Shown here: one piece after another, positions 29,772 through 30,908 of the stretch
Layout: each line of letters begins with the position of its first letter
Position numbering within the stretch: the first letter of the stretch is position 1
Source of the DNA: an uncultured Candidatus Saccharibacteria bacterium
GTDB taxonomy: Bacteria > Patescibacteriota > Kazan-3B-28
Length of the DNA stretch: 64,000 nucleotides
Direction: 5' to 3'
Assembly (NCBI GenBank): GCA_964434605.1
Contig: CAYSVM010000002.1
Coordinates: forward strand, 47-64,046
Notes under the pieces: model-generated
Database searches by the model: none
What the model was told of the DNA's origin: nothing
The model's input: only the letters and a program-made list of their open reading frames with translations
Translations under genes and position numbers: made by a program

Positions 29772-30908
29772 TTATTTCTCTTCCGAAACCAGGGTATAGC
29801 TATTTTTATCAACTCTACGAAATAACTTCTTATTCTGTAAATTAGCAATAACTGTATTCCTTTTTACTTCTCTATCCTTCAACACCGCTTCAATCACTTC
29901 TTCCACCGCTAGAGGTTTACCCGCTTGCTTCATTACCTTGATTATTACATCCGCAACCGCTCCTGGCTGGTACCCTTGTTCTCTAAGGGCATATATGCCT
30001 CTACCCACCAAGACGAACCTGGTATCACCAATAAGTTCATTATGCACCGTCCTACTCAATACCGTCTTCCCCCCAATAAACGTTTGGTTGATTGCATCAG
30101 CAATGTCTCTGAAATGCATTGGCTTTCCAAATTTCTGCAAAACAAGAAAGATTTTGTCACGTATCCTTTTTGGAACAACCGTTGGCCAAGCCACTAATCC
30201 CCACTCTCCACTTTCGGTCTGTGCTAACTTTGCTCCCACCAATAATATCCCATGAACAATACTCGGAGTAAGACGAGCACTATTGTCTGCATAAACTGGG
30301 GTATCTGTCAGTTTTCCCCACAATACATCTTCTGTTACTGGCTTACCTAGATTGACTAAAATCTTTTCTATTTCATCTAAAACTTTTATTACCAAGCCCA
30401 TAGAGGCATTCTTTTTTGCCCAACCAACATGGAACATATCTTCTTTGGGCAAACCAACTACATTGTTATCCAGCGCTACCGTTAAACGCAGGGCATTTAG
30501 TTCCGCTTCTCGTCTCTGATCATTCCCAATCTTAAAATATTCCGCTAATCCAGCCAGAGACATCACTCCTCCCATTTCTAAAAGATAGCTGTTTACAATC
30601 TTCAACAGTTTCGCCAAATCTTTAGTAGGCTTTTCTGCTAGTTTCTTTATTGCAGAATTCTCAACCTGACGAGCACGTTCTCTTGTAACACCAAACTTAG
30701 AACCGATCGCCTCTAAAGTAAGCTTATTGCCATCTTCTAATCCAAACCTTCCCAAGAGCACTTCCCTTTCCCGATCCTTTAGCGAATTAACAGCACTAAT
30801 TACAACCACTAATGGGTCCAGTGCTTCACGGGTCTTTTCCTCTTGTTCCACCATTATTGATTTAATGACGGAACTAGAATCTTCCTGGTTGTAGTTATCC
30901 TCCTCCAT
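29772..30908 (-). CDS. DNA-binding protein with sigma-70 region-4-like HTH and a C-terminal HARE-HTH-like domain
   Basis: 378 aa; [48 protein letters not shown] resembles sigma70 region 4. C-terminal [12 protein letters not shown]...[29 protein letters not shown] resembles the HARE-HTH / RNAP delta-subunit N-domain. First gene of an operon with T4CP-like paralog 2 and ligA. Confidence 0.55.
   Translation of the reverse strand: [378 protein letters not shown]

Follow-up and report, generated by a model that had tools for sequence, protein, structure and literature searches.

DNA translocases of the FtsK/HerA/T4CP class have known DNA readers, among them TraM, which pairs with TraD of F, the FtsK gamma domain, which reads KOPS, and the winged helix-turn-helix of Streptomyces TraB, which reads TRS. 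In type IV secretion systems (T4SS), the R388 structures identify the N-terminal domain of VirB4 as a protein-docking module. Acidic tails are known in sigma region 1.1 and in the delta subunit of RNA polymerase (RNAP), and the HARE-HTH domain of delta binds polymerase, not DNA. A DndH variant has a sigma-type HTH beside its HerA/FtsK domain, and HARE-HTH has been proposed to discriminate modified DNA (PMC10853773). Genomes of Patescibacteria encode roughly two “orphan” T4CP-like ATPases each, whose role in these organisms is an open question (PMC12102498). A large part of all bacterial diversity belongs to CPR/Patescibacteria. Among the essential genes peculiar to this lineage, most lack a known function, including those of the family described here, in which a sigma region 4 is joined to HARE-type winged helices.

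We analysed a member of this family in a 64,000-nucleotide stretch of DNA from an uncultured Candidatus Saccharibacteria bacterium (hereafter the window). The gene occupies positions 29772..30908, for which the earlier note gave no strand; the open reading frame is confirmed on the minus strand, begins with ATG and encodes 378 aa (the coordinates include the stop). On the same strand, a consensus sigma-70-type promoter (TTGACA-17 nt-TATAAT, 12/12, with TG preceding the −10 hexamer) lies at 30942..30970, 34 nt 5′ of the ATG, and homologous loci mostly have a promoter matching at 10–12 of 12 positions in the same place. Just 5′ of this promoter, a minus-strand terminator-like hairpin with a T-run (31011..31027) closes an upstream small-ORF unit (orf92, 31050..31328). 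Because the hairpin parts the gene from uvrC/orf92, a separate transcription unit is supported, and with both signals directly upstream it is reasonable that the gene heads its operon, as had been proposed from the sequence. The gene for a 913-aa ATPase (ATPase A, 27007..29748, minus strand) follows after a gap of 23 nt; 8 nt further on begins the last gene of the apparent operon, a complete gene for the NAD-dependent DNA ligase LigA (25016..26998, minus strand), with a hairpin directly past its stop (24978..25000). The window also encodes a paralogue of ATPase A, the 807-aa ATPase B (16527..18950, minus strand), with the same series of transmembrane (TM) helix, DUF8128 and T4CP-like domain (hhalign against the DUF8128 profile: probability 100%, E = 2e-54). 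The gene under study is core, chromosomal and single-copy-looking, and its surroundings are housekeeping genes (uvrABC, topA, ligA, gatCAB).

Two Pfam domains in the 378-aa protein score above their gathering cut-offs: Sigma70_r4 (PF04545) at aa 40–91 (E = 5.5e-13, 48.6 bits versus 24.1) and HARE-HTH (PF05066) at aa 253–310 (E = 1.1e-10, 42.2 bits versus 25.9). The N-terminal sigma region 4 and C-terminal HARE-HTH called in the earlier note are thus both confirmed, and the peptide blocks it quoted are present in the translation. Neither Sigma70_r2 nor Sigma70_r3 of Pfam matches the protein, the NCBIfam sigma models align only via their region-4 end (the last ~55 residues, at 55–60 bits versus cut-offs of 350–800), and the remainder folds as winged helices; the initial judgement that a protein without sigma regions 2 and 3 is not a sigma factor therefore holds. 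The NCBIfam model of RNAP delta, TIGR04567, scores 31.8 bits against aa 253–310, under its cut-off of 42. An AlphaFold model of the protein (pLDDT 91) comprises an acidic N-terminal tail, sigma region 4 and, from aa 96 to 378, four tandem winged helices (WH1 to WH4); the single HARE-HTH noticed earlier is one of four winged helices, of which three or more are HARE-type.

These parts differ in conservation and charge (all coordinates refer to the minus strand). The N-terminal tail (aa 1–31, 30816..30908) is acidic, with a net charge of −7, and poorly conserved, with pLDDT below 50 at aa 1–10; across 64 homologues its charge averages −3.9 and is negative in 92%. Sigma region 4, comprising 4.1 and the 4.2 HTH (aa 32–95, 30624..30815), contains the invariant residues R54, T64, L65, G69, T75, R76, E77, R78, R80 and Q81. 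WH1 (aa 96–168, 30405..30623) is variable and near-neutral. WH2 (aa 169–245, 30174..30404) is HARE-type, variable and slightly acidic, ends in GEWGLVAWP and has invariant G237 and W241. WH3 (aa 246–314, 29967..30173) is basic (+6), is the most conserved domain and holds the Pfam HARE-HTH match, where the model has a trio of helices and then a two-strand wing, and the domain ends in a strand-turn signature of the G-x-W-G-L..W type. WH4 (aa 315–378, 29775..29966) is HARE-type, conserved and basic (+4; family mean +5.8), with a weak DUF4777 match. WH2, WH3 and WH4 are mutually homologous (hhalign probability 95–97%), and the domains that are both conserved and basic are sigma region 4, WH3 and WH4 (mean charges +5.6, +6.1 and +5.8).

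When 1.84 billion proteins were searched with a profile built from the 64 homologues, 1,024 cluster representatives (clustered at 50% identity) matched at E ≤ 1e-30. The best 150 of these 1,024 matches are nearly all 340–400 aa long and aligned end to end; given this number of homologous clusters, and the similar length and end-to-end match of the best-listed ones, this is a genuine gene, not an ORF arisen by chance. Nearly all of the family is found in CPR/Patescibacteria, across which it is conserved. Its members are misannotated as “RpoS” or “RNAP delta”, and in the literature collection that we searched, itself incomplete, we found no characterisation of the family, of DUF8128 or of HARE in CPR. 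The protein, as we read it a cytoplasmic one, is specific to CPR/Patescibacteria, and we infer that it binds DNA with sequence specificity.

Synteny across CPR was assembled from metagenome contigs and exact-protein look-ups. Of 22 loci whose sequence extends far enough downstream, 18 have DUF8128 encoded by the gene that follows on the same strand, and this domain is usually fused to a T4CP-like ATPase or else followed by the ATPase gene; in the reverse direction, a sigma-4/HARE gene lies directly upstream of 4 out of 6 DUF8128 genes. A search for the same domain fusion beside T4CP-like genes in related genomes, as the earlier note had suggested, is therefore positive. Where genes have been called, the two are separated by −4 to +63 nt (23 nt in the window), and the other flanking genes vary between loci (topA/uvrA/uvrC, secDF, or a tRNA ligase). 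The linkage to ligA, also part of the original description, is limited to close relatives (the window, the P0003 locus, L001, L004 and L007), and linkage to DUF8128 is absent at L002, L014, L023/L024, L094 and L095, of which L023 and L024 are UGA-recoded contigs. An NCBI MAG (L093), whose DUF8128 protein bears the source name “Candidatus Saccharibacteria bacterium”, encodes a homologue with 38% identity to the protein of the window. Five loci (L010, L013, L021, L025 and L090) encode DUF8128 as a stand-alone membrane protein with no adjacent ATPase domain; an N-terminal TM helix is still predicted for the majority of them, and a conserved PPxNLP-type motif closes most of the sequences. Since the linkage persists at such loci, DUF8128 is indicated as the putative point of contact. 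The T4CP-like ATPase first proposed as the partner is thus correct in so far as the adjoining gene is conserved, but the conserved part of it is DUF8128, not the ATPase domain.

ATPase A consists of an N-terminal TM helix (aa 3–30), the DUF8128 domain (aa ~55–390; ~335 aa, 28579..29586, minus strand), a T4CP-like P-loop NTPase domain (aa ~391–800; 27349..28578, minus strand; Walker A GKSGTGKS) and a low-complexity tail. Its Pfam matches are TrwB_AAD_bind (37.4 bits versus 20.5), T4SS-DNA_transf (25 versus 20.1), TraG-D_C (30.9 versus 22) and, also above cut-off, DUF87, and the nearest solved sequences to its nucleotide-binding domain are TrwB and DotL. For DUF8128 a sequence search against the PDB returned nothing significant and the fold search alone was informative: the top 14 Foldseek matches are all R388 TrwK/VirB4 (best E = 7e-7, probability 0.99–1.0), so that DUF8128, the part whose gene stays beside the sigma-4/HARE gene, adopts the same fold as the N-terminal domain of VirB4/TrwK. 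By the positive-inside rule, with RQRGR directly after the TM helix, the domain is probably cytoplasmic. Among the window ORFs to ~50 kb, no relaxase, virB4 or other recognisable T4SS gene adjoins ATPase A or B, whose neighbours are housekeeping or unannotated; a pilin-like ORF at 36860..37321 is the only T4SS-related gene seen in the scanned part.

Essentiality can be assessed in the cultivated Ca. Southlakia epibionticum ML1, the only CPR species with Tn-seq data, where a gene annotated “RpoS”, SEML1_0294 (Wang et al. 2023, PMC10633639), encodes a protein of similar size (349 aa). It shares the Pfam pair (PF04545 at aa 27–72, PF05066 at aa 225–283), its parse matches ours in having a tri-helical domain and then three winged ones, and, as in the window, a T4CP-like gene adjoins it (SEML1_0293), while topA is found two genes upstream; on this architecture and synteny we judge it to be the apparent orthologue. 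SEML1_0294, which is tabulated but never discussed in that study, is class I essential by Tn-seq and belongs to a core, Patescibacteria-enriched family (PMC10633639 Table S1). Class I also includes RpoD, DnaG and TopA, and 53% of it is genetic information processing (PMC10633639). The adjacent ATPase gene SEML1_0293 is non-essential, and a second T4CP-annotated ATPase gene, SEML1_0142, preceded by small genes of its own, is class I essential and a member of a Patescibacteria-enriched core family (PMC10633639). By annotation and domain layout only, SEML1_0142 is the apparent counterpart of ATPase B. Because the orthologue is essential and its adjacent ATPase is not, the protein cannot be merely its neighbour's adaptor, and must also serve a second DUF8128-type ATPase or have an additional role. 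The earlier proposal of a DNA-targeting adaptor for the adjacent ATPase therefore fails in its one-to-one form, while the gene linkage behind it holds. We also considered whether the T4CP-like ATPase might substitute for FtsK, with the sigma-4/HARE protein as its KOPS-reading gamma domain; this was ruled out, as the FtsK of Southlakia (SEML1_0096) is canonical, includes a gamma domain and is essential.

The reading that we favour, tentatively, is that the 378-aa protein is a DNA-recognition subunit of CPR membrane ATPases, and not only of the neighbouring one. Under this reading it would serve as the DNA-recognition or DNA-loading subunit for ATPases built from a TM helix, DUF8128 and a T4CP-like motor: it would dock onto the DUF8128 domain, hold double-stranded DNA through sigma region 4 and WH3/WH4, and so tether DNA, possibly at −35-like TTGACA sites, to the motor, with ATPases of the B type, whose apparent Southlakia counterpart is essential, as a possible second partner. 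The gene linkage speaks for this reading, as does a cytoplasmic DUF8128 with the fold of a docking module. A capacity to bind DNA is suggested by sigma region 4, which by eye aligns without gaps to SigA region 4 from S. aureus and B. subtilis (~60% identity over ~50 residues), resembles the T. aquaticus fragment whose structure was determined on −35 DNA (1ku3/1ku7, 3n97) and keeps its −35-reading residues invariant, and by the basic charge of sigma region 4, WH3 and WH4. Distant non-CPR relatives of the sigma-4/winged-helix module are in keeping with such a role, as they adjoin or sit within DNA-tracking enzymes (a phosphorothioate-restriction helicase, and an Eco57I/MmeI-type methylase with DUF4007), as are the DndH variant with a sigma-type HTH and the shared standing of SEML1_0294 and SEML1_0142 as class I essential members of Patescibacteria-enriched core families. 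Against it, rescue from the failure of the one-adaptor-one-motor form depends on assuming service to SEML1_0142, the linkage is absent at the loci named above, and HARE-HTH in delta is a polymerase-binding domain. Also against it, the T4CP homologues of CPR are mostly far from virB4 (just 148 of 5,713 are near it) and relaxases are rare (PMC12102498).

A sigma region 4 so close to that of SigA could equally bind the flap of RNA polymerase, and the main rival explanation, which we regard as possible but doubtful, is accordingly an RNAP-associated general factor, with sigma region 4 on the beta-flap tip and/or −35 DNA and the HARE domains on polymerase in the manner of the delta N-domain, modulating initiation or recycling genome-wide; the linkage to the ATPase would then reflect co-expression or a secondary coupling. 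Primary sigma factors are indeed the nearest to this region: with the family profile, region 4 of SigA/RpoD is matched at an E-value of about 1e-20, identity in the alignments is roughly 60%, and the match extends over residues 93–102, which align with the C-terminal end of SigA past the recognition helix. The sub-threshold match to the delta model, an acidic N-terminal tail reminiscent of sigma region 1.1 and the delta tail, and a place in class I alongside RpoD, DnaG and TopA all point the same way. However, the residues that are invariant are DNA-contact ones, T75, R76, E77, R78, R80 and Q81 being unchanged in 64 homologues whose overall identity is only 34–81%, and a general polymerase factor leaves unexplained the phylum-wide adjacency to a membrane-anchored DUF8128 gene while other neighbours change. 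In one family member (P0342) a complete sigma factor, comprising regions 2, 3 and 4, is part of the same polypeptide, which would favour a polymerase role, but this single case is matched by an equally odd single fusion to SecF (P0370); both are probably read-through of adjacent genes, and we set them aside as Rosetta-stone evidence of function.

An ordinary sequence-specific regulator, which would bind −35-like boxes to control the operon it heads or some small regulon without physically engaging the ATPase, appears unlikely. The HTH-rich architecture would suit it, as would the gene's position at the head of an operon, preceded by a perfect TTGACA promoter, one which the encoded sigma region 4 could recognise. 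A second TTGAC near the promoter, present at about 7 of 24 homologous loci, could be taken as an autoregulatory site, but by a rough estimate this count is about what base composition predicts, and we rejected these boxes as such. Such a regulator would also have to be essential although its operon partner is dispensable, and five DNA-binding-type domains conserved at constant length over 1,000 clusters would be unusual for it.

The HARE-HTH domain had also been connected with DNA-modification and restriction contexts, which is borne out for distant relatives outside CPR but not for the core chromosomal CPR gene. A plasmid tblastn search found three distant relatives, all in restriction islands; for the Abditibacteriota and Rhodobacterales plasmids concerned, these islands are of a BREX-like or phosphorothioate-restriction type. 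The ATPase domains give weak matches to mad8, HerA and DndH of PADLOC, and recognition of modified DNA is the role proposed for HARE-HTH. That the protein senses modified or foreign DNA in a defence or DNA-modification system is nevertheless very improbable, given a single-copy-looking core gene amid housekeeping genes, an essential orthologue, and no methylase or nuclease neighbour at any CPR locus examined. Its own PADLOC match is limited to a 58-aa segment, aa 36–93, which aligns with the region-4 end of MzaA, and membership of a defence system was rejected on these grounds. A phage or mobile-element origin was likewise set aside: viral contigs gave only one full-length relative among 80 loci, the others being ordinary sigma factors, and tblastn against phages returned region-4 matches and no fuller relative.

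The DNA-recognition subunit that we favour can be extended to an essential CPR-specific machine, in which a free-standing sigma-4 plus HARE protein couples −35-like DNA, and perhaps RNA polymerase via the flap, to membrane-anchored VirB4-N/T4CP hybrid ATPases. We consider this extension speculative and rather unlikely; if true, it would represent a new way of handling DNA or nucleoprotein at the membrane, for example by feeding or anchoring DNA for an essential relaxase-less CPR type IV apparatus, with no counterpart in model bacteria. Were the protein instead a sigma region 4 acting in trans on RNA polymerase, it would define a new class of general transcription factor. A core, CPR-enriched family that is essential in Southlakia is now linked to the “orphan” T4CP-like ATPases, which are themselves shown to carry a VirB4-type N-domain, and this provides a concrete hypothesis that is genetically testable in Southlakia.

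Compared with the systems described at the outset, the 378-aa protein combines familiar parts in a different arrangement. Its sigma region 4 has the fold of the primary sigma region 4 (1KU7, 3N97, 4G6D, 7CKQ; Foldseek rmsd 0.9–2 Å over 48–55 residues, 53–58% identity) and shares the recognition-helix motif TRERxRQ, invariant in the CPR family, which we take to correspond to the −35 contacts T583, R584, E585, R586, R588 and Q589 of E. coli. Unlike SigA/RpoD, it has no regions 1.2, 2 or 3, and is therefore unable to contact the −10 element, melt DNA or engage core polymerase in the sigma fashion; region 4 is instead the N-terminal domain of a winged-helix array. With the delta subunit (RpoE) of Firmicutes it has in common a HARE-HTH winged helix, the one aligned by TIGR04567, and an acidic unstructured tail. 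Unlike delta, it falls short of the cut-off of that model, its tail is short and N-terminal where delta has a long C-terminal polyanion, its C-terminus is a basic winged helix, it has four winged helices and a sigma region 4, and its hosts are CPR and not Firmicutes.

The partner ATPase has the nucleotide-binding domain of the type IV coupling proteins (VirD4/TrwB). In those proteins the N-terminus consists of TM helices directly before this domain, whereas ATPase A has DUF8128 between a single TM helix and the motor, and is thus a hybrid of a VirB4-like N-domain and a T4CP-like motor. The closest parallel to the pair as a whole is provided by the DNA readers of FtsK/HerA/T4CP-class motors, which embody the same idea of an HTH or winged-helix reader combined with a membrane or hexameric P-loop translocase. 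Here, in contrast, the reader would be a separate protein built from sigma-4 and HARE domains, and the motor a CPR ATPase with a VirB4-type N-domain, a single TM helix and no relaxase/oriT context; ATPase A nevertheless carries TraG-D_C, the “TraM recognition site” domain.

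The earlier note described a gene product that joins a sigma-4-like N-terminus to a HARE-HTH block and lacks sigma regions 2 and 3, and Pfam searches bear this out as written. The 378-aa target ORF (29772..30908, - strand, ATG start) carries Sigma70_r4 at residues 40-91 (E 5.5e-13, 48.6 bits against a cut-off of 24.1) and HARE-HTH at residues 253-310 (E 1.1e-10, 42.2 bits against a cut-off of 25.9), with no sigma region 2 or 3 detected; NCBIfam sigma models align to it solely via their last ~55 residues, and the NCBIfam RNAP delta model matches its HARE block at a score below the model's cut-off. 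The promoter is a perfect TTGACA-17-TG-TATAAT, 34 nt 5' of the ATG, and is preceded by a terminator-like hairpin. On the same strand there follow, as had been claimed, a T4CP-like ATPase of 913 aa (ATPase A, 27007..29748, -) after a 23-nt gap and, 8 nt further on, the complete gene of an NAD-dependent ligase, ligA (25016..26998, -).

The window comes from a CPR/Patescibacteria chromosome and carries mfd, pth, der, gatCAB, ligA, uvrABC, topA, dprA, trmD, rnc and infB. Positions 25016..43897 hold a run of DNA-metabolism genes (uvrB, dprA, topA, a pilin-like ORF, uvrA, uvrC, the target, ATPase A and ligA), with two divergently transcribed genes, for a PrcB-C-domain protein and an AI-2E-family transporter, between uvrB and dprA; much of this order is kept in relatives just 42-54% identical (the locus of homologue P0003, L004 and L007). 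The 153-aa ORF between topA and uvrA (36860..37321, -) has three hydrophobic segments and 38% identity (E 9e-9) to an L007 ORF in the same position that carries T4SS_pilin (PF18895), and by this similarity appears to be a VirB2-like pilin gene isolated within a cluster of DNA-repair genes. Just 5' of the target promoter lies a 92-aa ORF (31050..31328, -) with one N-terminal TM helix, a terminator-like hairpin at its end, 90% identity in L001 (the closest genome) and no family match; ORFs of like size and position occur in the P0003 locus and L004.

The strongest signal concerning the target is a phylum-deep, tightly spaced pairing with DUF8128 (PF26449; residues ~55-390 of ATPase A), kept also where the ATPase domain lies at another locus. 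Across 22 loci, each with at least ~1.2 kb of downstream sequence, the next same-strand gene after the sigma-4/HARE gene encodes DUF8128 in 18 (the window, the P0003 locus, L001, L004-L010, L012, L013, L015, L017, L018, L020, L021 and L025), and a downstream DUF8128 gene was not found in L002, L014 and the recoded contigs L023 and L024. Where genes are called, the pair overlaps by at most 4 nt or is separated by at most 63 nt. The recurrence of the fusion beside T4CP-like genes in relatives, which the earlier note had proposed to look for, is thus found: in 13 loci a T4CP-like ATPase domain comes after DUF8128, either in one polypeptide with it or encoded by the gene that follows. A stand-alone membrane DUF8128 protein is followed by yceG/mltG in L010, L013 and L021, and by opposite-strand genes in L025. 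For the converse test, six DUF8128 proteins were picked by contig extent and source-named taxon, and the sigma-4/HARE gene lies directly upstream in four: L088, L089 (Buchananbacteria), L090 and L093 (Saccharibacteria). It is not upstream in L094 (WWE3), which has a scaffold gap there, or in L095 (Berkelbacteria), which has two DUF8128 ATPases in tandem. L090 repeats the order of stand-alone DUF8128 then yceG/mltG; none of these four mltG loci has an ATPase domain nearby, and mltG encodes a peptidoglycan-strand terminase. Genes around the pair vary by lineage (topA-uvrA-uvrC, secDF or a tRNA ligase), and ligA follows solely in the window's closer relatives, so that the conserved pair is sigma-4/HARE plus DUF8128.

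ATPase A consists of one N-terminal TM helix, an RQRGR motif, DUF8128, a P-loop domain and a low-complexity tail; since RQRGR directly follows the helix, the remainder should be cytoplasmic. When residues 1-400 were modelled (pLDDT 86), the top 14 Foldseek matches were all R388 TrwK/VirB4 chains (best E 7e-7), and DUF8128 (28579..29586, -) is therefore predicted with confidence to have the VirB4/TrwK N-terminal domain fold, a profile search against PDB sequences having returned no match. Pfam matches mark the motor domain as T4CP-like, with TrwB and DotL the closest solved sequences; TrsD proteins are reported to be abundant in Patescibacteria. Given the predicted DUF8128 fold, the CPR "T4CP homologues" would be hybrids of a VirB4 N-domain and a T4CP motor. 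A second ATPase of the same build (ATPase B, 807 aa, 16527..18950, -; TM, DUF8128 and T4CP-like ATPase) matches the DUF8128 profile in hhalign with 100% probability (E 2e-54). Two such ATPases in the window fit the published count of 5,713 VirD4-like T4CP homologues in 2,918 patescibacterial genomes, only 148 of them near virB4 (PMC12102498); its authors suggest that these homologues were perhaps exapted, and make no mention of a sigma or HTH partner. ATPase B is preceded at a 3-nt gap by a 126-aa ORF (18954..19334, -), whose product is a candidate for the corresponding "adaptor" of ATPase B, and followed by a 174-aa ORF (15960..16484, -); PADLOC returned no match for either, and Pfam none for the latter. 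From mfd to the 174-aa ORF, a stretch of ~1.7 kb (14200..15950) holds just overlapping ORFs of odd composition, with no Pfam match for the one at 14550..15083 and no Rfam or tRNA match in the region; it could be non-coding DNA or the remains of a gene.

An AlphaFold2 model of the target built from 64 homologues (mean pLDDT 91, pTM 0.76) resolves sigma region 4 and four tandem winged helices (WH1-WH4), for which we computed mean net charge over the 64 homologues and conservation as majority fraction. Sigma region 4 (aa 32-95; charge +5.6, conservation 0.62), WH3, the Pfam HARE-HTH (aa 246-314; +6.1, 0.73), and WH4 (aa 315-378; +5.8, 0.68) are conserved and basic, and flank the variable, non-basic WH1 (aa 96-168; -0.6, 0.45) and WH2 (aa 169-245; -2.2, 0.39); the N-terminal tail (aa 1-31; -3.9, 0.39) is negative in 92%. 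Foldseek against the PDB recovers the tandem winged-helix arrays SelB WH1-4, UFL1/DDRGK1 and Dcc1. Profile-profile comparison of sub-alignments finds WH2, WH3 and WH4 mutually homologous (95-97% probability) and WH1 weakly related to WH2 (55%), so the HARE block of the earlier note is present, not as a single domain but as three or four HARE-type domains.

For the N-terminus, the Foldseek matches are structures of SigA region 4 (53-58% identity, 0.9-2 Å rmsd), among them a fragment solved on -35 DNA (1KU7, 3N97), and primary sigma factors are the first matches of the family profile (E about 1e-20). S. aureus / B. subtilis SigA region 4 aligns with the window sequence without gaps ([48 protein letters not shown] in the window, [48 protein letters not shown] in SigA). 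T75, R76, E77, R78, R80 and Q81 are invariant in 64 homologues with overall identity of just 34-81%; in sigma-70 these residues of the recognition helix (R584, E585, R586, R588 and Q589 in E. coli) make the contacts to the -35 hexamer, and their invariance over such divergence argues, at the sequence level, for selection on DNA reading. This closeness to SigA would also follow if RNA polymerase were the target's site of action, with the protein serving as trans-acting region 4 plus delta-like factor, the main rival reading and in our estimate a rather unlikely one, which leaves the DUF8128 synteny unexplained. Conserved gene pairs of such a kind usually encode subunits of one complex, and the VirB4 N-terminal domain fold is a known docking domain. 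Taken with the three conserved basic domains of nucleic-acid-binding type and the -35-reading residues of sigma-4, the pairing leads us to favour, tentatively, a DNA-recognition or tethering subunit of CPR DUF8128/T4CP-like ATPases, in which sigma-4, WH3 and WH4 would be the putative DNA contacts. That the target is a local regulator we consider distinctly less likely than either.

Published Tn-seq of the CPR species Ca. Southlakia epibionticum (Wang et al. 2023, PMC10633639, Tables S1 and S2) gives an experimental reference point. SEML1_0294 (349 aa, annotated "RpoS"; PF04545 and PF05066, parsed as tri-helical plus three winged), with topA two genes upstream in an order close to that of the window, is apparently the target's counterpart by architecture, annotation and synteny. 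It is class I essential (ES/ES/ES), its insertions falling from 24 in input DNA to 1, 1 and 2 post-selection, whereas SEML1_0293, the 921-aa T4CP-like gene directly downstream, is NE/NE/NE, with 87-120 insertions and normalised reads that drop from 5817 through 2940 to 1372 (PMC10633639). The earlier note's adaptor for the adjacent ATPase is thus insufficient alone. Action on RNA polymerase would account for this essentiality; under the favoured DNA-recognition or tethering reading, the target would also serve ATPase B or have another essential job. SEML1_0142 (1019 aa, "TraM recognition domain" protein, P-loop domain aa 381-800), apparently the counterpart of ATPase B by architecture and annotation, is class I essential (ES/ES/ES) and, like ATPase B, has small ORFs in front of it, including an essential one; the canonical FtsK with gamma domain, SEML1_0096, is also essential (GD/ES/ES) (PMC10633639). 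The families of SEML1_0294, SEML1_0293 and SEML1_0142 are flagged as core and Patescibacteria-enriched, and the main text mentions none of the three genes (PMC10633639).

Plasmid tblastn found three distant relatives outside CPR. One is a 568-aa protein on an Abditibacteriota plasmid (L091, AP024153.1), with 24% identity across aa 41-373; the genes after it encode an Eco57I/MmeI-type methylase and a DUF4007 protein. Two Rhodobacterales plasmids encode 1,017-aa proteins with an embedded sigma-4/winged-helix module; in the one examined, from Pontibrevibacter (L092, NZ_CP049815.1), dndBCDE and a cysteine desulfurase gene come before the gene, and a phosphorothioation restriction helicase is the next one after it. 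A DndH variant likewise has a sigma-type HTH beside its HerA/FtsK domain (PMC10853773), and from these sequence comparisons the module is, by prediction, a recurrent DNA reader attached to DNA-tracking enzymes. The DNA-modification and restriction context that the earlier note named for HARE-HTH domains therefore holds for the distant plasmid relatives but not for the CPR gene, for which PADLOC found no defence context and whose family is essentially absent from viral contigs; a modified-DNA sensor is accordingly very improbable.

The family profile has 1,024 matches at E<=1e-30 among 1.84 billion cluster representatives, and the best 150 of these are nearly all 340-400 aa and aligned end to end. 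The nearest genome match is a "Patescibacteria group bacterium" MAG, and named homologues at 46-54% identity belong to candidate division Kazan. Source names include Kazan, Kerfeldbacteria and "Patescibacteria group"; Moraniibacteriota is taken from a locus title, and Saccharibacteria (L093) and Buchananbacteria (L089) from source names of adjoining DUF8128 proteins. In MAG RA.bin10 the homologue (L001, 8001..9133) appears as two overlapping tblastn segments, with an NCBI product of just 227 aa (P0020), owing to a frameshift or assembly error. A 362-aa member on two contigs of 31-32% GC (L023, 4974..6062; L024, 2103..3191), where long ORFs appear solely with UGA as sense (table 25), extends the family to UGA-recoding CPR lineages in which the DUF8128 linkage is lost. 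Two members are N-terminally fused, P0342 (800 aa) to an entire sigma factor with regions 2, 3 and 4, and P0370 (659 aa) to SecF. Since L005, L006 and L089 have secDF as the neighbour upstream, these fusions may be read-through of adjacent genes and not functional.

The target's domains and architecture are already in databases, and a supplementary table lists the family as CPR-enriched core and as essential (PMC10633639). In the literature searched, with incomplete coverage, we found no work on the function of the family, on its systematic pairing with DUF8128/T4CP-like genes, on the likeness of DUF8128 to the VirB4 N-domain or on the tandem HARE array. The known kind of system to which we tentatively assign the target couples DNA readers to motors of the FtsK/HerA/T4CP class, and there is a real chance that the target is something more unusual.
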